Origin: Escherichia coli O127:H6 str. E2348/69
Lineage (GTDB): Bacteria > Pseudomonadota > Gammaproteobacteria > Enterobacterales > Enterobacteriaceae
Assembly: GCF_000026545.1 (NCBI RefSeq)
Contig: NC_011601.1
Strand: one strand, 5' to 3'
Length of the DNA: 64,000 bases
The position numbers and the translations under genes are program-made. This document shows, in pieces, positions 5,385 to 19,469 of the stretch; within the stretch, counting starts at the first letter, position 1; each line of letters starts with the position of its first letter. The notes under the pieces are model-generated. The model had not been told where the DNA came from. It was given only the letters and a program-made list of their open reading frames with translations, and did no database searches.

Positions 5385-5846
<462 letters not shown>

Positions 5847-5868
5847 TTCGTTATTCAACGAGACGTAA

Positions 5869-5896
5869 AAACGCCGACCAGTGGTCGGCGTTTTGC
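5869..5896 (+). terminator. Intrinsic terminator of the rpsF-priB-rpsR-rplI operon
   Basis: aaaaacgccgaccagtggtcggcgttttgctttt: 9-bp stem, 3-nt loop, T-tract. Confidence 0.8.
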
Positions 5897-6206
5897 TTTT
5901 AAGTGATAAAAACCGCAGAAACAGACGTTCCCTCCATAAATCTCTTGTTATTCCTTTTATAAAAAGTTCGCAGTACCCATACCTGGCCCCCAGCCTCGCC
6001 GCTGGTAGTTCGTGTCATGTTTTTTACGCGTAAAACACGACAAAAGCATCAATACAGCGATCGTCTCCCTTGTATGATAATAAAAACAATATGTTATATA
6101 TGAATGTGCTGTTATTTTATTGTTTTTATATATAAAAGGATAAAATATCATCACTTTCGTAATCTTGAACGCTTTGCAGGTGCGTTCAATCCAATAAATG
6201 CTAATA

Positions 6207-6227
6207 TTATGGCTATCATAGCCATAA
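6207..6227. promoter_or_regulatory. 21-bp perfect palindrome TTATGGCTAT-C-ATAGCCATAA about 20 bp upstream of the HTH gene start; candidate autoregulatory operator
   Basis: Read directly from the sequence; flanked by two 22-bp direct repeats (about 6125-6146 and 6226-6247). Confidence 0.5.
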
Positions 6228-6247
6228 AAAGATAAAATATTATCACT

Positions 6248-6727
6248 ATGGGTAAAAAAACAGCACCGTTACTCCCTTATACGAATCAGATGCTTAGTGA
6301 ATTTGGTGAGCGGCTGAAACTTGCTCGTTTACGACGCAGGCTTACCGCAAAGCAAGTTGCTGAACGTGCTGGGATGTCGCCAATAACATTGCGCTCTCTG
6401 GAGTCAGGAAGTGCAGGGGTCACGATAGGGGCATATTTGTCTGTGATGCAGGTTTTGGGCCTGGAAACGGATTTAAATAAGCTTGCAGCTGAAGACGACT
6501 TAGGGCGTCAGCTCCAGGATTCCCGTTTGATTAAAAAAAGAGGGCTTTCTCGTTCATCAGGTAAAAATGAAGAAGGTATTCAGACAGACCCTTTTCAAAC
6601 GAGGTATGAGAAAGAAGGTTTACTCACCACGGATTTAACAGCACTGGCAGAAGGCTCAACGCCATCTATTACAGGAGAAACATCAACCTCTCTTGCAGCA
6701 CTATTAAAACCGATAAAAAACCGTTAA
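6248..6727 (+). CDS. Xre/Cro-type helix-turn-helix DNA-binding protein with long low-complexity C-terminal tail; HipB-like regulator of the downstream split-kinase module
   Basis: 159-aa ORF; N-terminal [32 protein letters not shown] is a classic Xre HTH; first gene of a three-gene co-directional cluster. Confidence 0.7.
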
Positions 6728-6740
6728 AAGGAAATTAATT

Positions 6741-7001
6741 ATGGCATTAATCGGAGTGTATGCGGATTGGGAAGGCCTGGATGGTCCGGAGCGGATTGGT
6801 TATTTACACAGTCGCCGCACTCGGACGCGTGAGATATTTGAGTTTGAGTACGATAAAAAGGCGCTTGCAGATCCTTCACTTAATTTCATTCAGTTAGATC
6901 CTGAAATAATGTTGTATGAGGGAGCACAGTACCCAATTCCTCCAAAGGATAAATTTGGTGCATTTAGTGATTCCTGCCCGGATCGTTGGGGCGTATGCTA
7001 A
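6741..7001 (+). CDS. HipA N-terminal subdomain-like small protein (HipS-like putative antitoxin)
   Basis: 86-aa ORF with AAGGA 8 nt upstream; contains ...FGAFSDSCPDRWG, resembling the conserved motif of HipA N-terminal domains; stop overlaps the next start (TAATG). Confidence 0.55.
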   Translation: MALIGVYADWEGLDGPERIGYLHSRRTRTREIFEFEYDKKALADPSLNFIQLDPEIMLYEGAQYPIPPKDKFGAFSDSCPDRWGVC

Positions 7002-8008
7002 TGAAGCGTCGTTTTGAGAGGGATATTCGAGACGGGTTATGTGATAAAGACTCCCACCTTTATGAGTCTGATTATCTACTAGGTGTTCATGATCTTTATC
7101 GGGTTGGGGCTCTTCGATACAAACGTGAAGACGCTGGAGAGTTTCTTGATAATCGCATTGATGTTGCAGCCCCACCATTTACCGAAATAGCGAGTCTGGA
7201 AAGGGCTAGCCGGGCAATTGAAGAAGATCCTGATAATAAAGAGCTAATGGGGCAAAAATGGTTAAGAATGCTAATCGCTCCGGGGGGATCATTAGGGGGG
7301 GCACGTCCGAAAGCCAGTGTTGTTGATGAAGCTGGGCATCTCTACATCGCTAAATTTCCCAGTGTAAAAGATGAGTATGATGTTGGTGGATGGGAAATGG
7401 TCGTTAATGCACTTGCTGTTGGCTGTGGACTGAATGTTGCACCTGCTCAGGCGCATAAATTTGCCAGCAATTACCATTGTTTTATGGTTCGTCGTTTTGA
7501 CCGCACTAATGCGGGAAGGCGTCTGCATTTTGCTTCGGCTATGACACTAACCAGGCATCAGGATGGTGAAGATGCCTCTACAGGTGTGAGTTATCTGGAA
7601 TTAGCAGATGTTCTTATCAGGCATGGCGCGCAGACTAATACTGATCTTAAGGAACTCTGGTCCAGGATTGTTTTTAATATTCTTGTTTCTAATACCGATG
7701 ACCATTTACGTAATCATGGATATATCTTGATACCGGGAAAAGGTTGGCGGCTTTCTGAGGCATATGATTTGAATCCTGTTGCCAGGTCTGACGGTCTAAA
7801 ACTCAATATTACAGAAAATGATAATGCACTTGATTTGGAATTAGCTCGAGAAGTTGCGGAGTATTTTCGACTTGGTTTGACAGAAGCAGATGACATTATT
7901 GCTAATTTTAGAGGGATTGTCAGTCAGTGGCGAATCATTGCCGAGCGTCTTCGATTACCTGGTCGTGAGCAAGAGTTAATGGCAGAGGCGTTCAGGGGGG
8001 CAATTTAG
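7001..8008 (+). CDS. HipA-family Ser/Thr kinase core (HipT-like putative toxin)
   Basis: 335 aa from ATG 7001 (ORF 6986-8008); Gly-rich loop GGSLGGARPKAS, catalytic-loop-like VSNTDDHLRNHG and downstream AYDLNP at HipA-like spacing. Confidence 0.65.
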   Translation: MKRRFERDIRDGLCDKDSHLYESDYLLGVHDLYRVGALRYKREDAGEFLDNRIDVAAPPFTEIASLERASRAIEEDPDNKELMGQKWLRMLIAPGGSLGGARPKASVVDEAGHLYIAKFPSVKDEYDVGGWEMVVNALAVGCGLNVAPAQAHKFASNYHCFMVRRFDRTNAGRRLHFASAMTLTRHQDGEDASTGVSYLELADVLIRHGAQTNTDLKELWSRIVFNILVSNTDDHLRNHGYILIPGKGWRLSEAYDLNPVARSDGLKLNITENDNALDLELAREVAEYFRLGLTEADDIIANFRGIVSQWRIIAERLRLPGREQELMAEAFRGAI

Positions 8009-8104
8009 AATAGTTATTTTGATATATTCGCTAAATCATAAATTTGCGAAGCAATGCCAGTAGATACTGAACGTTTTGGAAGAGACGTTTAATTTATGAG
8101 AAAA

Positions 8105-8141
8105 ATAGAAACGCTACAAAGCTAAATTATAGCGTTTCTAT
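8105..8141. terminator. Inverted repeat (atagaaacgct / agcgtttctat) between convergent kinase gene and MFS transporter gene; probable bidirectional terminator
   Basis: 11-bp arms with about 15-nt loop in AT-rich context. Confidence 0.45.
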
Positions 8142-8150
8142 GTAAAATAA

Positions 8151-9428
8151 TTAGCTTGTCGCTAACTGTACTTGTGGTTCTTCGTCTTTAACTTTGATAA
8201 GCATCCACAGCGCAATGGCGCCAATAATGTCAAAGAAAGCCAGGGCAATAAAGAACGGCGCGAAGCCAATAATGTGAACGAATGCCCCGATAAACAGGTT
8301 GAAAATCAACTGACCGCTCCATGCACAGGCTCCTGCCATACCCACAGCGGTAGCTACTTCGTCTTTTTTGAATAGGTCACCGCCCAGAGTTGCTGCAACA
8401 GTAGAAAGACATTGATGCGAGAATGCGCCAATGCTAATCAGTAATACGGCGATGTAGGGATTTTCGACAATACTCACCAGACCAATCGTCATCATAATGA
8501 CGGCTGCAATAGTGAAGGTAATTCTTCGTGAGTTAATTAAACTCACGCCGCGATCGTGGAAGAACTTCGCGACAAAACCACTGGCTAAACAGCCGAGATC
8601 GCCCAGCAGGAAAGGCAGCCAGACGAACATGGCAATTTCTTTCAGGCTAAAATGCAGCGTTTCGACGAAGAAAATCGGTACCCAGAAGTTAATGGTTCCC
8701 CATGCCGGGTCAGCGAGAAAACGCGCGATGCCAATCCCCCAGAAATTACGTTGGCTGAGGATATGCTTGATTGACGTTTTTTCTTTCTTATCTGTTTTAA
8801 GATGCTGTTCTTGCCCAGACTCAATATAGTGGCGCTCTTCATCAGAAAGGCGTTTAGCATCTTTTGGATCTTTATAACAAAAGAACCAAAATAAAGCCGC
8901 GAGTAAAGCAAGGCTACCTGAGACAATAAACGCAAATTGCCAGCTATGAAACATAATGCACCAGGCAATCAACGGTGGAGCAAGCATCGCGCCGAGTGAG
9001 GTGCCCATATTGAAAACACCTGTCGCCACGCCACGCTCTTTTGCCGGGAACCATGTTGATGCGGTTTTTACACCCGCAGGAATTGCCGATGCTTCGCTGA
9101 AACCCATCAGGGCGCGCATAAATGCCAGACCTGACCATGTTCCTGTCAAGGCATGCCCCATTGTCGCCAGGCCCCAGATTGCGGCACATATCGCAAAACT
9201 TAACTTCAGACCCACGGTATCAATAAAGAAGCCCATTATCGGTTGCCCCAATGTATAGGCCAACTGGAATGCACTGACAATCCATGAATATTGTTCTTTG
9301 GTTATTCCGGTTGTCTCCATAATCGTTGGAGCCGCAATACCTAACGCCGTTCTGTCCAGATAATTGATTACAGTGATAAAGCATACGAGGGCAATCATAT
9401 GCCATCGATAATTCTTTATTTTATTCAT
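8151..9428 (-). CDS. MFS transporter, anion:cation symporter (ExuT/GudP-like) family; probable organic-acid importer
   Basis: 425-aa ORF, about 12 predicted TM segments, N-terminal ...YLDRTALGIAAP... typical of hexuronate/aldarate-type MFS permeases. Confidence 0.75.
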   Translation of the reverse strand: MNKIKNYRWHMIALVCFITVINYLDRTALGIAAPTIMETTGITKEQYSWIVSAFQLAYTLGQPIMGFFIDTVGLKLSFAICAAIWGLATMGHALTGTWSGLAFMRALMGFSEASAIPAGVKTASTWFPAKERGVATGVFNMGTSLGAMLAPPLIAWCIMFHSWQFAFIVSGSLALLAALFWFFCYKDPKDAKRLSDEERHYIESGQEQHLKTDKKEKTSIKHILSQRNFWGIGIARFLADPAWGTINFWVPIFFVETLHFSLKEIAMFVWLPFLLGDLGCLASGFVAKFFHDRGVSLINSRRITFTIAAVIMMTIGLVSIVENPYIAVLLISIGAFSHQCLSTVAATLGGDLFKKDEVATAVGMAGACAWSGQLIFNLFIGAFVHIIGFAPFFIALAFFDIIGAIALWMLIKVKDEEPQVQLATS

Positions 9429-9520
9429 TTTTAAACCTTTTAATTATATTAATAAACCCTGGTTATTGGTATTTCCATGTAATAGGCAATAAAAATCAGG
9501 TACAGAGGAAATATTGAAAA

Positions 9521-11593
9521 TTATTGTGTGTAAATGTCTCCCTTTAAAAAGTCTGGCCAGTTTTTTTCAAAGTAAATACCGTTAATACACGGTTGAATAC
9601 GTAAAGACTTTACTTCGGTAATAAAAGAACCTTGCGAATATTGAATTGTTAATTTGTGATTTTTGTCTTCAGCGAGTTCAGAGCGAAAACGCCATTCTTC
9701 TTTTGCGCCGCGACGAGTTTGTGGTAGGCATTTGCCTTGTGGATCAATAACCATACGCGCCCCACGGCTACCACCACCAGCATCAATATAATGCGTTAAT
9801 TGTGTTAATACCGCGGCAGAAGTCAGCGCCATATGCCGCCACATAAACAGCTCGGCAACTTCACCCACATGTTTGATTGCCAATCCATGCCGTTGCACAA
9901 ATTCACTCAATAGCAGGGCATCACGAGTGGCGCGTCGGACTTTATCGGCATGGCAAATAAATCCCGCATGGTCAGACATTCGTGCCTGAATTTTTTCTCT
10001 CACAACCGACAACGGCATCCCGGTCCCGTTATCGTGCGCCTGAGTAATGATCTCTCTTATAGAAGCCAGTGCCGGAGCTGCCAGCTGTGCAATATCTCCA
10101 TCAATATTCCGCTTTTGCGTGCAACCAATAAAGCGCGCCAGACGAACAGCAAAAACCTGCCCGGCATTCAACGCCGCGCCGCCAGGTCGGGTGACGCCGT
10201 GTGTGCCAGCAACTTCCCCCACCGCAAAACAACCGGGCAGAGATGTTTGTCCCCAGATATCGACTTCAATGCCGCCATTCATGTGCTGATTATTCATGGC
10301 AAACTGCAATGGCTGCGTGATGAGATCGTAACCGTGCATCTTATACAGCGAGATAGACAGAGGATTCATTCGTTGCAGGCGTTCGATGGGCGATGGTGCC
10401 AGAGCGTCGTTATTTTCCAGATACGTGCGAACGTCGTCGTCCAGTCGATCTAATGAGAACGGCAGGTCACCCGGCACAGGTTCAGGATTGCGATTGAAAT
10501 CCATAAATACCTGACGCCCTGATTGCTGCTCTTGCGCCACCGCCATATCTAACAAGCTGGAGCCAAAATCCATTACCCGCGTGGCGTGGAATGGCCACTG
10601 ATAGCCTTTACGGAAGATGTTTGAAGCCAACTCCTGGGTGGTGCGATAGTAATCTGCGAGGAAGTTATACTCGTTGCCCCCAGCATCCACGGAATAGATA
10701 TATGGGATCACCTGTACATAGGTGCCGGACAAATTCCACGGAAACGTGCTGCGCGGTGTGCCGATACCAAACTGGCTTTCAGTCAGATTCGTTAACGTCA
10801 GACCTTCCTCCAGCGCCAGCCCCAGCGAGCCGAAACATTTGTGTGGATACACACTGTCGCGATAAAGCTCGCCAGGCCCGCCTGTTGCCAGTACCACATT
10901 GGGTGCAGTCACAATTGCCAGCCCCCATGGGTTATGGGCGCGATGACCGGTCGCGAGGATTGCCCCCGCCACACGGTCTTCACCGTTTTCGTCACGCTGA
11001 TGCAGCAGTTTAATCACTGTTGCACTGGTCAACATTGGGATAGCAAGACGCTGTACTTCTTCCAGCAGCACTTTCACCATTAACCTTGAGGTACGCGGCC
11101 CACACGAGGTTGCACGCCCGGCTTCGTCGTGGTCGGTTTGATAACGAAGAATCGCGCCATAGCGATCTTCCGGTAATTCCAGACCAAGATATTGCAACCC
11201 GCCAAGAGTGTGCAGAGAACCTACCGCTTCAACATAAGCGGTGTCGTGATCCATCGCCCCACCGCTCGCCAGTGCCTCTGCCAGTTTGGCGAAGTTGTCG
11301 CCGTTGCCCGCGGTAGCGGCGGTAAACAGTGTTTGTTTATCAGAGCCAGAACATGCCGACGTCCCCATATATAACCCGGCGGTGGCGATTAACACATTTT
11401 GCTGGCGGCGTTTAAGTTCCACAGCTGCACGCAGCCCGGCTGCACCACTGCCGACTACCAGGGCATCTGTTTTCCAGAGTGGGTAATCAACACCGTCTAC
11501 CGTGACAACCCATGCGGGGTCTGCCTGTGCAAAACCCTTTGGGAAAGTAACGTGCGTCAGCGCATCAAGGATGGTGTCATCAAGCTGACTCAT
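9521..11593 (-). CDS. FAD-binding oxidoreductase, fumarate reductase/succinate dehydrogenase flavoprotein-like (690 aa)
   Basis: N-terminal dinucleotide-binding motif DALVVGSGAAGLRAAVEL; large size; ATGA overlap with upstream CoA-transferase gene. Confidence 0.65.
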   Translation of the reverse strand: MSQLDDTILDALTHVTFPKGFAQADPAWVVTVDGVDYPLWKTDALVVGSGAAGLRAAVELKRRQQNVLIATAGLYMGTSACSGSDKQTLFTAATAGNGDNFAKLAEALASGGAMDHDTAYVEAVGSLHTLGGLQYLGLELPEDRYGAILRYQTDHDEAGRATSCGPRTSRLMVKVLLEEVQRLAIPMLTSATVIKLLHQRDENGEDRVAGAILATGHRAHNPWGLAIVTAPNVVLATGGPGELYRDSVYPHKCFGSLGLALEEGLTLTNLTESQFGIGTPRSTFPWNLSGTYVQVIPYIYSVDAGGNEYNFLADYYRTTQELASNIFRKGYQWPFHATRVMDFGSSLLDMAVAQEQQSGRQVFMDFNRNPEPVPGDLPFSLDRLDDDVRTYLENNDALAPSPIERLQRMNPLSISLYKMHGYDLITQPLQFAMNNQHMNGGIEVDIWGQTSLPGCFAVGEVAGTHGVTRPGGAALNAGQVFAVRLARFIGCTQKRNIDGDIAQLAAPALASIREIITQAHDNGTGMPLSVVREKIQARMSDHAGFICHADKVRRATRDALLLSEFVQRHGLAIKHVGEVAELFMWRHMALTSAAVLTQLTHYIDAGGGSRGARMVIDPQGKCLPQTRRGAKEEWRFRSELAEDKNHKLTIQYSQGSFITEVKSLRIQPCINGIYFEKNWPDFLKGDIYTQ

Positions 11594-13131
11594 GCATCCT
11601 CCATCGGCGTAAACAGGCTGCTTTCCATCAGACGTGGGTGCCTGATAATCGGACGGAAGGCCATGAATGGCAGAATGTCGCGCTCAATCTCTACGCCAGG
11701 GGCGATCTCAATTAATTCAACGCCTTCTGCCGTTAACTGGAATACCGCACGTTCGGTGATATACAGCACTTCCTGACCGCTTTGCTGTGCGTAGGCGGCG
11801 CTAAAGGTGATTTTTTCCACCAGGGCAACCAATTTAGGGATTTGACCTGACTGGGCGATATGCAAGCCATCTGGCGTTACATCAATCTTGCTGCCTTTGG
11901 CGTCGAACGTACCGCAAAACACCACTTTACGGGCGTTTTGTGCAATTTCGAGAAATCCGCCGGGGCCAATGAGATTGCCATTAAGATGGGATACGTTGAC
12001 GTTACCGTACCGATCCATCTCTCCCATGCCGAGGAAGGTGATATCGATACCGCCGCCACTGTAGAATTCGAATTGATCGAGTGATGGAATAATGGCATCG
12101 GCGTTACGGGCGCAGCCGAACAGAGCATCATCCAGCATCATGCCGTTATGTACACCCTGTTCTACACTCAGCCACAAACTTTGATAAGGCACGCCTTCGC
12201 GCAGCGCAACCCCAGGAATACCGCCGGGAATACCAAAGCCAAAGTTGGTTGAAGCGCCTGCCACCAGTTCCCGCGCTGCCCGACGGGCAATCAGGCGACG
12301 CACCGGATGACTAACCAGTTCAATAGCGTCGTTAGAACTTAGACGGCGATGTTGACCGCTGATGGTCAGGTCGTAACCGCCAAGATAGGTTTGCGGTTGT
12401 TCGCGGTGCTCAACGATGCCATCGACCAGAATTCCTGGTAGCTTGACCCGACGTGGTTCAATGGTACCTGCTTCCAGCACATCGCGGACCTGTACGAACA
12501 CTTTGCCGCCGCTGTTGTGTGCTGCCAGCGCCATCGAATAGCTATCCATATAAATCGCTTCTTCTTCGAGGCTAACGTTGCCTCGTGGATCGGCATAAGT
12601 GCCACGCAAAATCGCGTAATCCACTTTGAAAGGGCGATAACGAAGTTTGGTCTCACCGTCGATTTCAATCAGTTCTACCAGGTCGTCGGTAGTGCATTCA
12701 TTCGACTTACCGCCGCCATTGCGTGGATCAACAAACGATCCCAGCCCAACGTGGGTAAAAAGCCCCGGACGTCCGGCACCGATCTCCCGCAGCAGTGCCT
12801 GAATTACGCCACCAGGGAAACAGTAGGCTTCAATAGCATTGCTTTTCACCAGTTCCTGCATCTTGGGCGACCAGGTAAAATGTCCGGCAATAATGCGTTT
12901 GAGCATTTCGGCGTGAGCAAAACGGTTAGTGCCTTTGCTGTCGCGATCGCCAATACCCAGCGAGTGGATTAATGTCAGATCGCGCGGGTGTCCGGTTTGC
13001 AGGAAACGCGCTTCAATGGCGGCCAGAATATGGTCAGCTTCCACCATACCGCCGCCGTTACCGCTAATGGCAATGGTTGCGCCGTCCTGAATTTGCGCCG
13101 CCAGTGTCTCGGCGGTTGATAACTTACGCAT
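11590..13131 (-). CDS. Family I CoA-transferase (acetyl-CoA hydrolase/transferase, fused alpha/beta, YdiF/Pct-like)
   Basis: 513-aa ORF MRKLSTAETLAAQIQDGATIAISGNGGG... with the glycine-rich CoA-transferase N-terminus and duplicated domain architecture. Confidence 0.7.
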   Translation of the reverse strand: MRKLSTAETLAAQIQDGATIAISGNGGGMVEADHILAAIEARFLQTGHPRDLTLIHSLGIGDRDSKGTNRFAHAEMLKRIIAGHFTWSPKMQELVKSNAIEAYCFPGGVIQALLREIGAGRPGLFTHVGLGSFVDPRNGGGKSNECTTDDLVELIEIDGETKLRYRPFKVDYAILRGTYADPRGNVSLEEEAIYMDSYSMALAAHNSGGKVFVQVRDVLEAGTIEPRRVKLPGILVDGIVEHREQPQTYLGGYDLTISGQHRRLSSNDAIELVSHPVRRLIARRAARELVAGASTNFGFGIPGGIPGVALREGVPYQSLWLSVEQGVHNGMMLDDALFGCARNADAIIPSLDQFEFYSGGGIDITFLGMGEMDRYGNVNVSHLNGNLIGPGGFLEIAQNARKVVFCGTFDAKGSKIDVTPDGLHIAQSGQIPKLVALVEKITFSAAYAQQSGQEVLYITERAVFQLTAEGVELIEIAPGVEIERDILPFMAFRPIIRHPRLMESSLFTPMEDA

Positions 13132-13140
13132 ACAATTTCC

Positions 13141-13923
13141 TTATTGATTGTGGAAGCTCACGCCGGCTTTTTCGGCAAATGCGTGCGTCGCCTGTTGGCA
13201 ATCCTGAGTGGCGGACATTAATCCAGCCAGTAACTGGTGGGAGTAATCGGCGTGTTTATTTTCCAGCGCCAGAATCAGTTGCTTAATATGTGCCAGTGCC
13301 ACCGGACCACATTTTTCCAGCTGCGCTAACTGGTTCACCATCCAGCTTTCCACCTGTTCTTTTTCTACCACTTCATCAATTAAATTCGCTGTCTGAGCTT
13401 CCTGCGCCGTCAGGCGTTTACCCAGCATCAGCATCTGGCGACCGACCACCGGGCCAACCTGATTAAGCACGCGTTCAATGCCCATCCAGCCAGGCACCAT
13501 GCCGAGCATCACTTCCGGGTTAGAGAATTTCGCGCCGGGGCGAGCGATACGAATATCACAGCACAAGGCGAGTTCAATCCCACCGCCAATGGTATGACCG
13601 TTGAGATTTGCAACCGTTAATTGGGGTAAATTGCGCAGGCGATTAAAAACCTCGTTACCGCGTTTAATCCATTTTCTGCCCATATCTAATGGCGAATAGG
13701 CCGACCACGATTTAATATCGCCGCCCGCACAAAAGAATTTATCGCCGGTTGCCGTTAATTCGACTAATCGTAATGTGGTGTCGTTTTCAATTTCATTTAA
13801 ATAATGGTCGAGAGATTCGATCATTTCTTCATTAATAGCATGACATTTATCTTCACGGTTCAATGTCAGGCGGCAAGAAGCCGCCGCTCTGCTGAACAGA
13901 ACGGGTTGGTCATTCATGATCAT
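13141..13923 (-). CDS. Enoyl-CoA hydratase/isomerase (crotonase) family protein
   Basis: 260-aa ORF; ...DKFFCAGGDIKSW... and ...NGHTIGGGIELALCCDIRIA... match the crotonase oxyanion-hole segments. Confidence 0.75.
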   Translation of the reverse strand: MIMNDQPVLFSRAAASCRLTLNREDKCHAINEEMIESLDHYLNEIENDTTLRLVELTATGDKFFCAGGDIKSWSAYSPLDMGRKWIKRGNEVFNRLRNLPQLTVANLNGHTIGGGIELALCCDIRIARPGAKFSNPEVMLGMVPGWMGIERVLNQVGPVVGRQMLMLGKRLTAQEAQTANLIDEVVEKEQVESWMVNQLAQLEKCGPVALAHIKQLILALENKHADYSHQLLAGLMSATQDCQQATHAFAEKAGVSFHNQ

Positions 13924-13926
13924 TCC

Positions 13927-14769
13927 TTAACAATAATGTGCGATGCGATCGACGCTAATATCCAGCGTGCTGTTAATATCTTTCTGCCACCAGTACGGTG
14001 AGAATATTTCCAGTTCAATAGCGCCATTAAATCCGGCGTTTTCAACCAGCCGACGAATTGACGGAATATTGATGACACCATCTCCCGGCATTCCACGGTC
14101 ATTGACCAGATCGGTGGTCGGCACTAACCAGTCGGAAACATGAAACGCGAGGATGCGTTTTCCGGCACGCAGGATCTGACTGGCGAGATCCGGGTCCCAC
14201 CAGACATGGTAGACATCTACCGCCACGCCGAGGCCAAATTCGCCATCGGGATCGAGTTCATCACACCAGTCCAGCGCCTGACGTAACGTGCACAGACAAG
14301 AACGATCGGCAGCAGTCATCGGGTGCAGTGGCTCCAGTGCAATTGGCACGCCGACCTCTTTCGAATGTGGCAGCAACTGGCGAATCCCTTGTTTCACCTG
14401 TTCCCGTGCTTCGTACAGATCTTTTGTTCCCATTGGCAGACCGCCAACCACCTGCATATAACAGGCGGCGTTCAGTACAGCGGCGTCGTCCAGCGCCCGG
14501 CGGTTATCGTCAATCGCCAGTTTGCGCTCCGCCAGCGTCGGTGCGGTGTAGTAGGTGCTACGGCACAAACCGGAAACGTTCATGTTACTGGCAGCAAGCT
14601 GGCGGGCGATTTGCTGGAGATCTTCACTCTGCAACTCCCTGCGCCAGGGGGCAATCGCGCCAATACCGCGTGCGGCGCAGGCATCAATAATGGCGGGTAG
14701 CGGCGTTTTATAGCCCAGTGTCGCGGTATTGATACTGAATAAATCCGGGCGTTGTAACAGATCTCTCAT
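13927..14769 (-). CDS. Sugar-phosphate isomerase/epimerase (xylose isomerase-like TIM barrel) family protein, possibly a dehydratase
   Basis: 280-aa ORF with ...LAFHVSDW... and ...IELEIFS... typical of the AP-endonuclease-2/xylose-isomerase-like fold. Confidence 0.6.
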   Translation of the reverse strand: MRDLLQRPDLFSINTATLGYKTPLPAIIDACAARGIGAIAPWRRELQSEDLQQIARQLAASNMNVSGLCRSTYYTAPTLAERKLAIDDNRRALDDAAVLNAACYMQVVGGLPMGTKDLYEAREQVKQGIRQLLPHSKEVGVPIALEPLHPMTAADRSCLCTLRQALDWCDELDPDGEFGLGVAVDVYHVWWDPDLASQILRAGKRILAFHVSDWLVPTTDLVNDRGMPGDGVINIPSIRRLVENAGFNGAIELEIFSPYWWQKDINSTLDISVDRIAHYC

Positions 14770-14778
14770 GATTCAGCC

Positions 14779-15570
14779 TCAGAAGCGCGGCATACTTAAG
14801 CCGCCGTCGATGGCGACCGCCTGACCACAGGTGTAAATCAGTTTACCTTCCGCCATCGCGCGGACAGTGGAAGCAATATCAGCCGGATAACCCCAACGTC
14901 CCCACGGCACCAGACCTTTGGCAATCAGTTCGTCGTAATAGGCCGTTGCCGGAATAGTCATATCGGTTTTGATGAGACCAGGACGCACTTCATATACGCC
15001 AATTTGTTCATTACAAAGGCGAGCAGCAAACAGACGAGCAGCGGCAGAGACGGCAGTTTTGGCAATGGTATATTCGCCGCGATTCATCGCCAGCATGATG
15101 GCGTTGATGGAACTGACAAAAATAATCGAGCGGTGCGGCAGTTCTGCTTCCGGTTTCGGCTGTGCCAGTAAGCGCTTACTGAATGCCTGAGCAAGGAAGA
15201 ACGGTGCGCGGGTGTTAATGGCAATATTTTGGTCGAAGCTGTCTGGTTCGAGGTCGAGAAGGTCACCGCGTTTTTTCACTGAAATGCCTGCGTTGTTGAG
15301 CAGGCAGTCCAGACGTCCCCACTGGTTTTGCGCTGCGTCGAGCATCTCTTCATGCAGGGAGAGATCGCCCACATCAGCAGGGAAGCAAATCACTTCCACG
15401 CCTTCCGCCAGACATTCTTGTTGTGTGGCATGTAATTTTTCTACGCTATCGGCATCCGGACGATCATTAATCAGCAGATTAAATCCGCCACGCGCAAGCT
15501 CCAGCGCACAGCCTTTTCCAATACCACGTGCGGCTCCGGTAATCACGGCAACAGGACGAGTGGATTTCAT
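14779..15570 (-). CDS. Short-chain dehydrogenase/reductase (SDR)
   Basis: 263-aa ORF; cofactor motif VAVITGAARGIGKG, NNAG, and catalytic Y-x3-K (EYTIAKTAV). Confidence 0.8.
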   Translation of the reverse strand: MKSTRPVAVITGAARGIGKGCALELARGGFNLLINDRPDADSVEKLHATQQECLAEGVEVICFPADVGDLSLHEEMLDAAQNQWGRLDCLLNNAGISVKKRGDLLDLEPDSFDQNIAINTRAPFFLAQAFSKRLLAQPKPEAELPHRSIIFVSSINAIMLAMNRGEYTIAKTAVSAAARLFAARLCNEQIGVYEVRPGLIKTDMTIPATAYYDELIAKGLVPWGRWGYPADIASTVRAMAEGKLIYTCGQAVAIDGGLSMPRF

Positions 15571-15639
15571 ACAATAGCTCTCTTTTTTTTGAATTTTGTT
15601 TCCTTAGTGATGATTAGCTTGCGACTGGAGGGTAAAAAG

Positions 15640-15661
15640 ATCAACCATCTAGTTGGTTGAT
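15640..15661. promoter_or_regulatory. Inverted repeat ATCAACCA-N6-TGGTTGAT in the divergent SDR/TetR intergenic region; candidate TetR operator
   Basis: 8-bp perfect arms read directly; about 70 bp upstream of the SDR start and about 120 bp upstream of the TetR start. Confidence 0.45.
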
Positions 15662-15783
15662 ATGCGATGGCGATCACAGGACATTTGATAACCTGATGAA
15701 AGTACAAGTTTTTGCCCTTTTTTCTGAAGCTGAAATCAAATCAGGTTATGATAGTCACCACGAAGAGGTCGTGGGGAAGCGTT

Positions 15784-16431
15784 ATGTATCTTGATACCAG
15801 CAACGTACAGAGCCTGAAAGAAAAGCTGCTGTTATGCGCGGTTAATGAATTTGCCGAATATGGTTACGAAGGGGCCAGAGTCGATAATATCGTCAAGGCC
15901 GCGGGGTGCAGTAAACAGACGGTTTATCACCACTTTGGTAATAAAGAAAATTTATTTATCGAAGTACTGGAATATACCTGGAACGATATTCGACAAAAAG
16001 AAAAGGCCCTTGATTTCTCAGATCTTCCGCCACAGAAAGCCATTGAGAAAATAATCGATTTTACATGGGATTATTATATTTCTAATCCCTGGTTTTTAAA
16101 AATTGTGCATAGTGAAAATCAAAGTAAGGGTGTGCATTATGCAAAATCACAGCGTCTTTTAGAAATTAACCATGCGCACTTGCAGTTAATGGAATCCTTA
16201 TTGGATGAAGGGAAGAAACAAAATATTTTTAAGCCAGATATCGACCCATTGCAGGTGAATATTAATATTGCTGCGCTTGGGGGATATTATTTGATCAACC
16301 AGCATACGCTTGGCCTGGTTTATCACATCAGTATGGTTTCACCGCAGGCACTGGAAGCCAGACGTAAGGTCATCAAAGAGACAATCCTTAGCTGGCTTTT
16401 GGTTGACCCTTCATCTACCGCGCGCGAATAA
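15784..16431 (+). CDS. TetR/AcrR-family transcriptional regulator
   Basis: Internal ATG of ORF 15712-16431; N-terminal ...[44 protein letters not shown]... is a canonical TetR HTH. Confidence 0.8.
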
Positions 16432-17053
16432 AACTGCCATCCGGCTGGCGGGTAAACAGGACCTGTTGATTATTCCCCGTATCAATGGTTAAGCCCGTCA
16501 CCACGCCGCTGGCGTTCTGGCGGATTTTCACCATCTGCCCGTTTTGCAAATTACTCAGTGGCTTATCCGCGCCTTCTACCTGCGCCATGGCATAGACATC
16601 GGTAGCGGGCAGTCCGTGGTCGCGGAACAGCTGCGCCATCGTTTTACCGGGTTCGACACGATAGGAGCGCCATTGATTATCAATTCCGCTATCTGGCTGG
16701 AATGGTTGCGTATGGGTGGTTTGCGGCTGCTCTTCTGGCTGGCCTTCCTGTATTGGTTCTGGAGCGACCGGAGCCACCTGATCAGGATCATTTTGTGGCG
16801 TGACTAATTGCGCCCGCAGCTGTTCTTCTGTCGGTGGTTGTGATTGCGACTGAATATCTAACTGCGCTTCACGCGTCACCACCGGCGCGTTGGGCGTATC
16901 ATCAGATGGAAGCAGAAATCCGACCACCAATACAATGGCGGCAATAATGATCCCCCGACGATGCATCGGCGGCAGCGGGTCCATGAAGCGAAAATTGTCC
17001 GGCGCGTGCCAGACTTTCTCCAGGGTTGGTTTTAGTTCAAAGCGCCCGGGCAT
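16415..17053 (-). CDS. ytfB: Cell-division protein with OapA/LysM-like C-terminal domain
   Basis: 212-aa product [34 protein letters not shown]... with Pro/Gln-rich linker; 3' end overlaps the TetR gene 3' end. Confidence 0.85.
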
Positions 17054-17919: not shown

Positions 17920-19469
17920 CTGTCTCTTATACACAAATCCCCACCCGGGGATTTGTGATGTCTGTCAGTCTGCTTTAGGGGGACTCTTTCCATCCGGTAG
18001 TTTCCTTCCTCCCCGGCAGCGATTTTTTGAACTTTTTCCTCACCTGTTGATCTTCTCTTATATTTCATTTTCTTCGGGTCTGTTATGGTACTTTCTGATT
18101 GTTATTCATGGGCTAACGAGCAGTTTGGACATGCCCGTCTCGGTGATCCGCGTCGTACACGACGCCTTGTGTCACTGGCCTCTTCTCTCGCTCAGCATGC
18201 AGGTCTTTCTATTGTGAAATCATCCCAGTCCACTGCTCAGGTTGAAGGTGCGTACCGCCTGATACGTAACCCGTCTGTGTCCCCGCAAGCCATTGCCGAA
18301 GCCGGATTTACCGCCACTGTAAGGGCATGTGAGGCTCATCCGCTGCTCCTCGCGCTGGAAGACACCACCACCATTAACTTCAGTCACAGTACGGCATCTG
18401 ATGACCTGGGGAATACCACCACTAACCCGAAGACGCGCGGGCTGCTGGCTCACTCTGTCCTGATGTACGCCCCCGACAGCGCCCTGCCAGTCGGTCTTAT
18501 CGAACAGCAGCGCTGGAGTCGTGCCACGGACACCTACGGTGTTAAGCACCAGCGAAAAGAACGTCCCTATGAAGAAAAAGAAAGTTACCGCTGGCAGCAG
18601 GCTTCGGAGCGCATGGCCGAACGGCTGGGGGAGATACAGAAACGGGTAATCACTGTCTGTGACCGGGAAGCGGATATCTGGCATTACCTGCATTATAAAG
18701 TCAGCCACGGGCAGCGCTTCGTGGTGCGTGCAGCACAGAATCGCCGGCTGGAAGAAGCACCCGGCAAGCTCTTCGAACTGCCGGAAGTCCTGGCAACCGC
18801 GGGAAGCCACACGCTGAATGTGATGCAAAAAGGCGGGCGGGCAGCCCGCCAGGCCCGGATGTTCATCAGTTACAGCGAAGTCAGCATAAAAAATCCCGAC
18901 AACAGCGGCCAGGCGCTCCCGCTCACGTATGTCTGTTGCCGGGAGCAGGCAGAGGACGGCGCCTGCTGGCATCTGCTGACGTCAGAAAAAGTGGCGAGTG
19001 CCGCCGATGCGCGACGTATCGTCAGCCATTACGAGCGACGCTGGCTGATAGAGGAATACCACAAGGCGTGGAAAAGTGGTGGTACATGTGTGGAATCGCT
19101 GTGAATGCAGACCCGGGATAACCTCGAGCGCATGGTGGTTATCAAGGCGTTTATCGCGGTGCGGGTGCTGGGCCTGCGGCAGGGCGGTATCAGTGAAGAA
19201 ACACAAAATGACAGCTGTGAGAAAATACTGACGCCGACAGAGTGGAAACTGCTGTGGGTTAAGCTGGAAGGAAAACCGCTTCCGTCACAGATGCCGACAC
19301 TGAAATGGGCCTGTCTGAAACTGGCGAAACTGGGGCGATGGCATGACAGCAAACGCACCGGTCGCCCCGGTTGGGTAGTCATGTGGGATGGCTGGTTCAG
19401 ACTTCAGGATATGGTTGAGGGTTACCTGGTGATGAAGTCTCTTGATCAGGAGATCTGATCAAGAGACAG
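17920..19469 (+). mobile_element. IS50/Tn5-like insertion sequence (IS4 family) with diverged transposase
   Basis: Left end CTGTCTCTTATACACAAAT (2 mismatches to the Tn5 outside end as I recall it); right end is the exact reverse complement of the Tn5 inside end CTGTCTCTTGATCAGATCT; flanked by direct repeat cgaaccag; internal Tn5-Tnp-like ORF. Confidence 0.85.
18085..19458 (+). pseudogene. Tn5-like transposase interrupted by an in-frame TGA at 19102-19104 (ORFs 18085-19104 and 19105-19458, same frame)
   Basis: N-fragment LGDPRRTRRLV...EGAYRLIRNP...LALEDTT...CDREADI...RRWLIEEYHKAWKSG closely resembles Tn5 Tnp including the DDE positions; C-fragment DNLERMVV...AVRVLGLRQ... continues the alignment after the stop. 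Confidence 0.7.

Follow-up and report, generated by a model that had tools for sequence, protein, structure and literature searches.

The interval between rplI and ytfB was analyzed in a 64,000-nucleotide stretch of the Escherichia coli O127:H6 strain E2348/69 chromosome, which is called the window below. In this enteropathogenic E. coli (EPEC) reference strain, the interval (positions 5897–16431) encodes a hipBA toxin-antitoxin module, a catabolic operon of five enzymes and a transporter, and a TetR-family regulator. It is very likely a mosaic, recombining locus built around an ancestral catabolic operon that was partly deleted in K-12, and not an inserted island. The operon and TetR gene would already have stood between rplI and ytfB in the Escherichia ancestor, and within E. 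coli the operon would be a long-standing presence/absence polymorphism. The transporter would be exchangeable, being either an anion:cation symporter (ACS)-family permease of the major facilitator superfamily (MFS) or a DctPQM tripartite ATP-independent periplasmic (TRAP) system. The slot beside the rplI terminator would be occupied by hipBA, yjfZ, or nothing. A first reading of the letters of the window, referred to as the original prediction, had described this DNA as a strain-specific accessory island with a HipBST-like module.

Ancestry and variation of the rplI–ytfB interval

Relatives of the FAD-dependent flavoprotein of the operon were found by a scan of genome contigs in 324 species-level genomes, some from very distant phyla, and all window proteins were compared by tblastn to the best 80 of these 324 flavoprotein-bearing loci. 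The order fklB, ytfB, TetR gene, short-chain dehydrogenase/reductase (SDR), TIM barrel, enoyl-CoA hydratase, CoA transferase, FAD flavoprotein, transporter, rplI is complete in E. whittamii (locus L010), in Entomohabitans teleogrylli (L014), and in a divergent lineage labeled E. coli (L011) that has the TRAP version of the operon locus. Matching parts lie on cut contigs of E. albertii (L013, fklB to the flavoprotein) and Escherichia sp. MOD1-EC7003 (L012, CoA transferase to rplI). The DNA identity of the operon genes to E2348/69 is 86–93% in E. whittamii and 87–94% in E. albertii, compared to 91–93% for ytfB/fklB in both species. The corresponding values in Entomohabitans are 73–79% and 66–80%. 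The divergence of the operon thus tracks the divergence of its flanks, which argues for vertical descent with the flanks since before the Escherichia radiation. A tblastn line giving 100% identity between the MFS permease and E. whittamii was discarded; the DNA identity there is 91.5%. The strain that carries L011, SCPM-O-B-8794 (NZ_JAATUR010000006.1), has ytfB and fklB genes that are only 92–94% identical to those of E2348/69, and it is probably a cryptic Escherichia lineage and not E. coli sensu stricto.

K-12 and O157 retain pieces of the regulator and the operon. The K-12 gene ytfA consists of the last 401 nt (3′ end) of the TetR gene (window 16031–16431, 98% identity), including the 17-nt overlap with ytfB, and the NCBI Prokaryotic Genome Annotation Pipeline (PGAP) names the gene next to ytfB in K-12-type genomes a TetR/AcrR regulator “missing N-terminus”. 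When K-12 is aligned to a strain carrying both yjfZ and the operon, collinearity is broken only by two gaps of 7.3 kb and 548 bp around a 102-bp relic of the SDR gene. This relic, present in K-12 and O157, corresponds to window 15380–15481 (L007:3530–3631) and is 80% identical to the window. O157 has the same junctions as K-12, with 98.75% identity across them, plus an IS609 insertion. The TetR and SDR relics at the “empty” K-12 site indicate deletion, as a site before insertion would hold none. Judged from these junctions, K-12, O157, and others appear to carry one shared deletion allele, and K-12 appears to be the derived state. Absence from K-12 together with a lack of mobility genes does not make an island when K-12 is the deleted form, and the K-12 ytfA gene with its adjoining sequence would be the relics of a TetR-controlled operon kept by most other Escherichia. 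Vertical inheritance followed by deletion would also explain why there are no mobility genes. The K-12 content given in the original prediction, yjfZ plus ytfA, was found in K-12-type genomes. Its right junction needs revision: the TetR gene does abut ytfB, but in comparison with K-12 the end of the variable DNA falls inside the TetR gene, at 16030/16031.

Six haplotypes were distinguished. The window has hipBA-MFS-operon-TetR. The others are yjfZ-MFS-operon-TetR (L002); MFS-operon-TetR with only ~45 bp next to rplI (L003); TRAP-operon-TetR (L008); the K-12 type, consisting of yjfZ and a C-terminal fragment of TetR (L007); and the K-12 type with IS609 inside the TetR fragment, as in O157 (L009). 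Prevalence was determined by searching sub-queries against 5426 RefSeq complete E. coli genomes at ≥80% cover. The five-enzyme block was detected in 3114 genomes (57%), the MFS gene in 1685 (31%), the alternative three-gene TRAP cassette in 1446 (27%), the hipBA segment (5900–8124) in 1040 (19%), and yjfZ in 2524 (46.5%). By subtraction, the shares are ~42% K-12 type, 27% TRAP, 19% hipBA-MFS, 8% empty-MFS, and 4% yjfZ-MFS. The operon is therefore not strain-specific, as it is carried by 57% of complete genomes, and the exact gene content of E2348/69 occurs in ~19% of them and not in essentially all E. coli including K-12. An uncharacterized acid-catabolic operon at this frequency is a candidate niche determinant. 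A six-gene colinear cluster in CFT073, c5298–c5303 (“SAC 18, 3-ketoacid metabolism”), was listed in a 2010 synteny survey as lacking in K-12, O157, and Shigella and as occurring in uropathogenic E. coli (UPEC), E2348, HS, several B1 strains, and SMS-3-5 (PMC2831201).

The yjfZ gene (L007:2571–3365) is missing from E2348/69, from Nissle 1917, which has hipBA in the slot, and from 545 genomes, including sequence type 131 (ST131), that carry a hipA allele with a C deletion at nt 505 (ΔC505). It is also missing from the TRAP haplotypes examined (L008, L011). This gene has been proposed as an E. coli-specific “conserved signature” target for quantitative PCR and is absent from more than half of the complete genomes.

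Identity to E2348/69 is not uniform over the operon. The TRAP haplotype L008 shows 99% for the flanks and TetR, 97–98% for the SDR and TIM barrel genes, 96% for the hydratase, 93% for the CoA transferase, and 94% for the flavoprotein. The last 240 bp of the flavoprotein gene (9521–9760) are only 67% identical between the MFS and TRAP haplotypes and mark the junction of the cassette swap. In L002, identity is 98–99% from the TIM barrel through TetR and 94–95% from the hydratase through the flavoprotein. These gradients indicate that homologous recombination swapped the transporter cassettes and that one of the junctions falls within the flavoprotein gene, at its 3′ end. The operon has two interchangeable uptake systems, high- and low-affinity.

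The alternative is that a genomic island was acquired by a K-12-like ancestor, inserted between rplI and ytfB, and later lost its mobility genes. Its patchy distribution in E. coli (57% or 19%, depending on the part), some AT-rich segments, and the relatives of the FAD enzyme in very distant phyla are all consistent with this history. It does not account for the same position and gene order in four other Escherichia lineages and Entomohabitans with flank-matched divergence, or for the TetR and SDR relics in K-12 and O157, and no integrase, tRNA, or direct repeat accompanies the interval. Island insertion is thus very improbable. Several points nevertheless weigh against an ancestral operon with a K-12 deletion. 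The SDR relic is 79–85% identical to every SDR allele examined, other Escherichia included, against 98% for the DNA beside it; the deletion allele would have to be either very old or derived from a divergent allele outside the sample. The outgroup evidence is one genome per species, and E. fergusonii, Salmonella, and Citrobacter were not among the best 80 of the 324 matches. An old transfer into the Escherichia/Entomohabitans ancestor could therefore have brought in the operon. TetR (40% GC), hipBA (45%), and the spacers are AT-rich. The genome counts are biased by clones such as ST131, and the empty-MFS and yjfZ-MFS shares come from subtraction and are not direct counts. The CFT073 cluster c5298–c5303 is very probably the same cluster as the operon described here, a match made on position, gene number, and annotation only.

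The factual side of the original prediction holds, with a good left boundary. The query 5847–16431 (10,585 bp) is 100% identical to the E2348/69 (O127:H6 EPEC) chromosome NZ_CP059840.2. Gene calls from the open reading frame (ORF) listing, NCBIfam scans, and RefSeq/PGAP annotation all agree, and the gene content, coordinates, and core flanks rplI and ytfB given in the original prediction were confirmed. The left flank is rpsF-priB-rpsR-rplI. All compared strains are collinear to 5899/5900, directly past the T-run of the rplI terminator, and this position is the left breakpoint shared by every haplotype compared, which agrees with the predicted start at 5897. The 3′ ends of TetR and ytfB overlap by 17 nt (16415–16431), as had been noted. 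We did not detect a tRNA between 3000 and 20000 in a tRNA scan, nor an integrase, recombinase, or transposase ORF inside 5900–16431 in the ORF list, NCBIfam, or PGAP. A repeat search of 5700–16700 returned only short chance repeats and no direct repeat flanking the interval. The earlier statement that integrase, tRNA, and flanking repeats are missing thus stands. The nearest mobile element is an ISEc13 (IS4-family) copy inserted between fklB and cycA at 17920–19469 (transposase from 18085), 1.5 kb to the right of the interval and with its own 8-bp target duplication. None of the five other strains compared has this copy, and it has no bearing on the variation at the locus.

Base composition is uneven, with AT-rich hipBA, TetR, and spacers against typical enzyme genes. 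The GC content is 36% in the spacer between rplI and the helix-turn-helix (HTH) gene of the hipBA module, 45% in the HTH gene and hipA, 46.6% in the MFS gene, ~35% in the flavoprotein 3′ end and following spacer, 49–55% in the five enzyme genes, and 40.4% in TetR, compared to 51.4% for the window. Spacers across the locus are 35–39% GC. A two-part composition had been proposed, and its AT-rich left part was found; the right part, described as GC-typical, includes TetR, the MFS gene, and the ~35% GC stretch at the flavoprotein 3′ end and spacer, which do not fit. TetR is AT-rich though vertically inherited, and its low GC is therefore not a mark of recent acquisition. A consensus promoter scan gave fewer matches than shuffled sequence and was not used as evidence.

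Features of the rplI–ytfB interval in E2348/69 (window coordinates)
Feature	Position	Strand	Basis or remark
rplI	5397–5846	+	core left flank
rplI rho-independent terminator	5868–5899	+	terminator scan
Variable slot next to rplI, here hipBA module, 2225 bp	5900–8124	.	BLAST breakpoints vs L002 (yjfZ) and L003 (empty)
Regulatory region upstream of HTH gene, 36% GC	5900–6247	+	AT-rich, repeats and palindrome
XRE-type HTH gene, HipB-like antitoxin	6248–6727	+	PDB 9u9g “XRE family transcriptional regulator, HipB”, E = 1.3e-30
hipA, HipA-family Ser/Thr kinase toxin gene, pseudogene here	6741–8008	+	alignment to intact 422-residue alleles (L006, L092)
Operon terminator, hairpin and T-run	8105–8141	-	repeat and terminator scans
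MFS permease, anion:cation symporter/D-galactonate-transporter family	8151–9428	-	TIGR00893, 314 bits
FAD_binding_2 flavoprotein, 690 residues	9521–11593	-	Pfam E = 1.1e-25
Fused family-I CoA transferase (FadX/acetate-3-ketoacid CoA-transferase type)	11590–13131	-	NCBIfam FadX E = 1.7e-113, below cutoff; PGAP name
Crotonase-fold enoyl-CoA hydratase/isomerase	13141–13923	-	NCBIfam and PGAP (PGAP start 13917)
Xylose-isomerase-like TIM barrel, “sugar phosphate isomerase/epimerase” family	13927–14769	-	PDB matches
SDR oxidoreductase, first operon gene	14779–15570	-	NF009386, 420 bits, above cutoff
Divergent promoter region, 213 bp, 39% GC	15571–15783	.	between SDR and TetR genes
TetR/AcrR-family regulator, 215 residues, 40.4% GC	15784–16431	+	several TetR NCBIfam matches over N-terminal HTH; PGAP
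ytfB	16415–17053	-	core right flank, converges on TetR gene

The hipBA module

The slot that holds hipBA in E2348/69 contains yjfZ or a ~45-bp spacer in other strains. Upstream of the HTH gene are a 24-nt direct repeat (6132–6155 and 6224–6247) and the palindrome TTATGGCTAT-c-ATAGCCATAA at 6207–6227; from their placement, the repeat and palindrome (6132–6247) are candidate antitoxin operators. The HTH protein matches NCBIfam couple_hipB weakly and below cutoff (30.3 bits vs 71.65, E = 2.9e-7). An A7 to A6 change at ~6714 alters its last residues alone (159 residues here, 163 elsewhere), and PGAP flags the gene as “frameshifted”. The HTH gene ends 2–13 nt upstream of hipA. In hipA, a G5 to G4 change at ~6987–6990 (codon 83) splits the gene into an 86-residue ORF (6741–7001) and a 340-residue ORF (6986–8008), and PGAP annotates E2348/69 hipA as frameshifted. 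The intact allele matches Pfam HipA_C (PF07804, E = 4.6e-47, residues 184–397) and Couple_hipA (residues 17–94), and its translation, read by eye, contains a Gly-rich loop and the motifs DDHLRNHG and YDLNP.

An exact-match search with an 81-nt probe found the G4 allele in 3 of 1044 carriers, all of them O127:H6, and the G5 run is uninterrupted in the other 1041. The E2348/69 hipA lesion is thus real, though restricted to this clone. The C deletion at nt 505 is present in 545 of the 1044 carriers, including ST131, and a G7 to G8 insertion in the Gly-rich-loop codons is present in 137, including Nissle 1917 and NCTC9022. These three independent lesions leave hipA frameshifted in at least 66% of carriers. 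The HTH gene is usually intact, and intact hipA alleles exist, for example in FDAARGOS_1301. The hipA lesions of other lineages lie at other sites, which indicates decay, and the recurrent frameshifts would fit either a costly toxin or neutral decay. Positions 7270–7300 (hipA codons ~178–188) contain G6 and G7 runs that encode the Gly-rich loop of the kinase, PGGSLGGAR, and the assembly Ecol_448 has extra G losses in hipA G runs. These runs might act as an on/off switch prone to slippage; alternatively, the extra losses in that assembly may reflect sequencing noise.

Relatives of hipBA are found on plasmids of Azotobacter (76% identity) and Pantoea (72%), and a 139-bp hipA remnant occupies the equivalent slot in Escherichia sp. 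MOD1-EC7003. The module appears to be a conventional two-gene type II hipBA pair that is horizontally mobile and whose toxin gene is decaying, and hipBA is plausibly the sole acquired part of the interval. A search of the PADLOC defense models with HipA, the HTH protein, YjfZ, and a MaoC-like protein returned nothing meaningful.

The original prediction had called this module HipBST-like. As a true tripartite system, it would have the HTH protein as HipB, the 86-residue ORF as HipS, and the 340-residue ORF as HipT. The three ORFs are consecutive and have the right order and sizes, and the gene is split close to where the HipA N-subdomain, defined by the Couple_hipA match, ends. The TAA stop (6999–7001) of the 86-residue ORF overlaps an in-frame ATG (7001–7003) in the sequence TAATG (6999–7003), and re-initiation at this ATG would yield a 335-residue kinase fragment. 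Canonical HipBST was itself defined in this strain. Against a tripartite system, the G5 site is unbroken in all but the three O127:H6 carriers, and lesion-free alleles encode a single 422-residue HipA, so the apparent gene boundary is a 1-bp deletion. The frameshift call by PGAP and the inactivation of the same gene at other sites in other lineages point the same way. The module was also considered as the canonical O127:H6 HipBST itself and rejected: HipT (PDB 7AB3–7AB5) matches the 340-residue ORF with 37 bits over ~105 residues only, and a PDB search with the 86-residue ORF gave no match. A HipBST-like system at this site is extremely unlikely, and a re-initiated fragment that mimics HipS/HipT is unlikely to be functional. 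The three-ORF appearance in this reference EPEC strain arises from a frameshift and should be kept apart from canonical HipBST. A frameshift with a TAATG overlap at the HipS/HipT-equivalent boundary may nonetheless illustrate a route by which HipBST arises from hipA.

The catabolic operon, its regulator, and candidate substrates

The minus-strand operon is ordered SDR, TIM barrel, enoyl-CoA hydratase, CoA transferase, FAD flavoprotein, transporter. From the SDR gene onward, the genes are separated by gaps of 9, 3, and 9 nt, a 4-nt overlap, and then 92 nt. The closest PDB relatives of the TIM barrel protein are 3qc0 and 3ju2 (SMc04130), both with E~1e-85, and 7vpf (6e-62). All are functionally uncharacterized entries, and the NCBIfam matches to keto-sugar isomerases and epimerases are weak. 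The flavoprotein is a distant relative of fumarate reductase and L-aspartate oxidase (FrdA, SdhA, NadB), and its best PDB match is only ~E = 1e-8. Its family spans rhizobia, planctomycetes, and verrucomicrobia (at least 324 species) and has no characterized member. Escherichia sp. MOD1-EC7003 (L012:5373–5852) and Entomohabitans (L014:13657–14136) have an extra gene after the MFS gene that encodes a 159-residue MaoC-like (hotdog-fold) hydratase; this gene was not found in the E. coli haplotypes examined (L002, L003, L008, and the window). In the Entomohabitans locus, an EamA-like permease gene adjoins rplI. A literature search on rplI with ytfB, SMc04130, 7VPF, and 9U9G found nothing relevant.

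The TetR gene is transcribed divergently from the operon across a 213-bp spacer. The spacer contains a 22-bp palindrome with the halves ATCAACCATCT and AGTTGGTTGAT at 15640–15661. The palindrome is kept in 7 of 7 Escherichia sequences compared, and the surrounding spacer is variable. Its conservation and location make it a likely candidate for the TetR operator. The TetR gene of the TRAP-haplotype strain CUVET19-1704 (L008:11748–12394) is annotated as frameshifted, and given this annotation the operon may be constitutively expressed in some strains.

In the proposed pathway, a hydroxylated carboxylate would be imported and would relieve TetR repression. The SDR would oxidize the substrate, the TIM barrel enzyme would isomerize or beta-eliminate it, the flavoprotein would carry out a C=C reduction or desaturation, and the CoA transferase and hydratase would process a CoA thioester. 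The substrate is probably a sugar acid or a hydroxylated carboxylate. Both alternative uptake systems are carboxylate carriers of sugar-acid families. The MFS permease falls in the D-galactonate/hexuronate transporter family (TIGR00893), and the best PDB matches of the TRAP binding protein are 4OVR, 4X8R, 4N8Y, 4N15, 4N91, and 4MHF (E = 1e-60 to 1e-72). Glucuronate or galacturonate is bound in 4X8R, 4N8Y, 4N91, and 4MHF, and 4N15 was the modeling template for the glucuronate binder STM3169 (PMC11668362, PMC7660916). A hexuronate-like sugar acid is the leading candidate on these grounds, though still a tentative one. The five operon enzymes gave no NCBIfam match to UxaC, UxuA, UxuB, or Udh/Gci-type enzymes, the resemblance to hexuronate carriers being confined to the transporters. 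In other taxa, the flavoprotein gene is most often linked to the TIM barrel and SDR genes and variably to the CoA transferase and hydratase genes. Its variable neighbors include Gfo/Idh/MocA dehydrogenases, GMC oxidoreductases, acyl-CoA dehydrogenase with Etf, and ShiA- or PcaK-like permeases.

Two other substrate classes were considered. A hydroaromatic acid is rather doubtful. A shikimate/quinate reductive pathway is hinted at by permeases resembling ShiA in Raoultella and PcaK in Brenneria, by two loci with cyclohexanecarboxyl-CoA-dehydrogenase-like genes, and by the shikimate-reducing flavin reductases of gut bacteria. This pathway was demoted to a minority alternative because both E. coli transporters suggest sugar acids and because the TIM barrel protein has no close relationship to dehydroshikimate dehydratases. 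Degradation of short-chain 3-ketoacids or fatty acids is the function suggested by database names: PGAP and NCBIfam give “3-ketoacid CoA transferase”, “3-ketoacyl-ACP reductase”, and “enoyl-CoA hydratase”, the 2010 survey used the label “3-ketoacid metabolism” (PMC2831201), and L012 and L014 have an additional MaoC-like hydratase gene. However, neither a thiolase nor an acyl-CoA dehydrogenase is encoded in the E. coli operon, which has a TIM barrel of keto-sugar type and a flavoprotein resembling fumarate reductase. The two alternative transporters both come from sugar-acid families, and Gfo/Idh/MocA sugar dehydrogenases occur in orthologous clusters. A short 3-ketoacid is an improbable substrate, on a par with the hydroaromatic acid. 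Two points detract from the assignment to sugar acids as well. It is based on ~40% transporter similarity and on neighborhoods that point two ways, to sugar and to hydroaromatic acids, and none of the enzymes reaches an equivalog cutoff for a defined reaction except with the generic SDR model.

Taken together, the SDR, TIM barrel, flavoprotein, CoA transferase, and crotonase block might constitute an undescribed CoA-linked route, ancestral to Escherichia, for a hexuronate-like, possibly hydroaromatic, acid; we consider this a speculative proposal. If it is correct, the route would be a polymorphic trait, its presence or absence setting B2/UPEC, Nissle, and many commensals apart from K-12, O157, and Shigella.

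Relation to known systems

The hipBA module resembles K-12 HipA/HipB and YjjJ/HipH in having an HTH antitoxin gene directly upstream of a HipA_C kinase gene and an AT-rich upstream region with repeats and palindromes. The relationship is distant: the NCBIfam YjjJ model scores 42 bits where the cutoff is 401, and no solved HipA is close. Compared to known HipBA, the HTH protein is longer (163 residues), and the toxin gene is frameshifted in most carriers. HipBST of O127:H6 (7AB3–7AB5) shares the strain background and a superficially similar three-ORF order, but it is another locus and family, and the split in hipA is a clone-specific frameshift rather than a conserved gene boundary.

The hexuronate TRAP systems (STM3169, 4X8R, 4N8Y, 4N91, 4MHF) are the closest solved relatives of the binding protein in the alternative cassette, likened by overall sequence match. 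That cassette lies outside this window, as E2348/69 has the MFS version, and the adjacent genes in this locus are not those of the Uxa/Uxu pathway.

The K-12 rplI-yjfZ-ytfA-ytfB interval has the same flanks and the same left breakpoint past the rplI terminator. Apart from the SDR relic, neither the MFS gene nor any of the five enzyme genes is present there, the promoter region and the 5′ end of TetR are also missing, and yjfZ occupies the hipBA slot. The CFT073 cluster c5298–c5303 also has six genes and is absent from K-12, and its distribution agrees with the 57% prevalence found here. The 2010 survey (PMC2831201) gave presence/absence and an annotation-derived name only, and it did not treat ancestry, the K-12 relics, the transporter swap, or hipBA. 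The locus is ordinary pan-genome variation, partly noted in 2010, and the remaining interest is the uncharacterized pathway.

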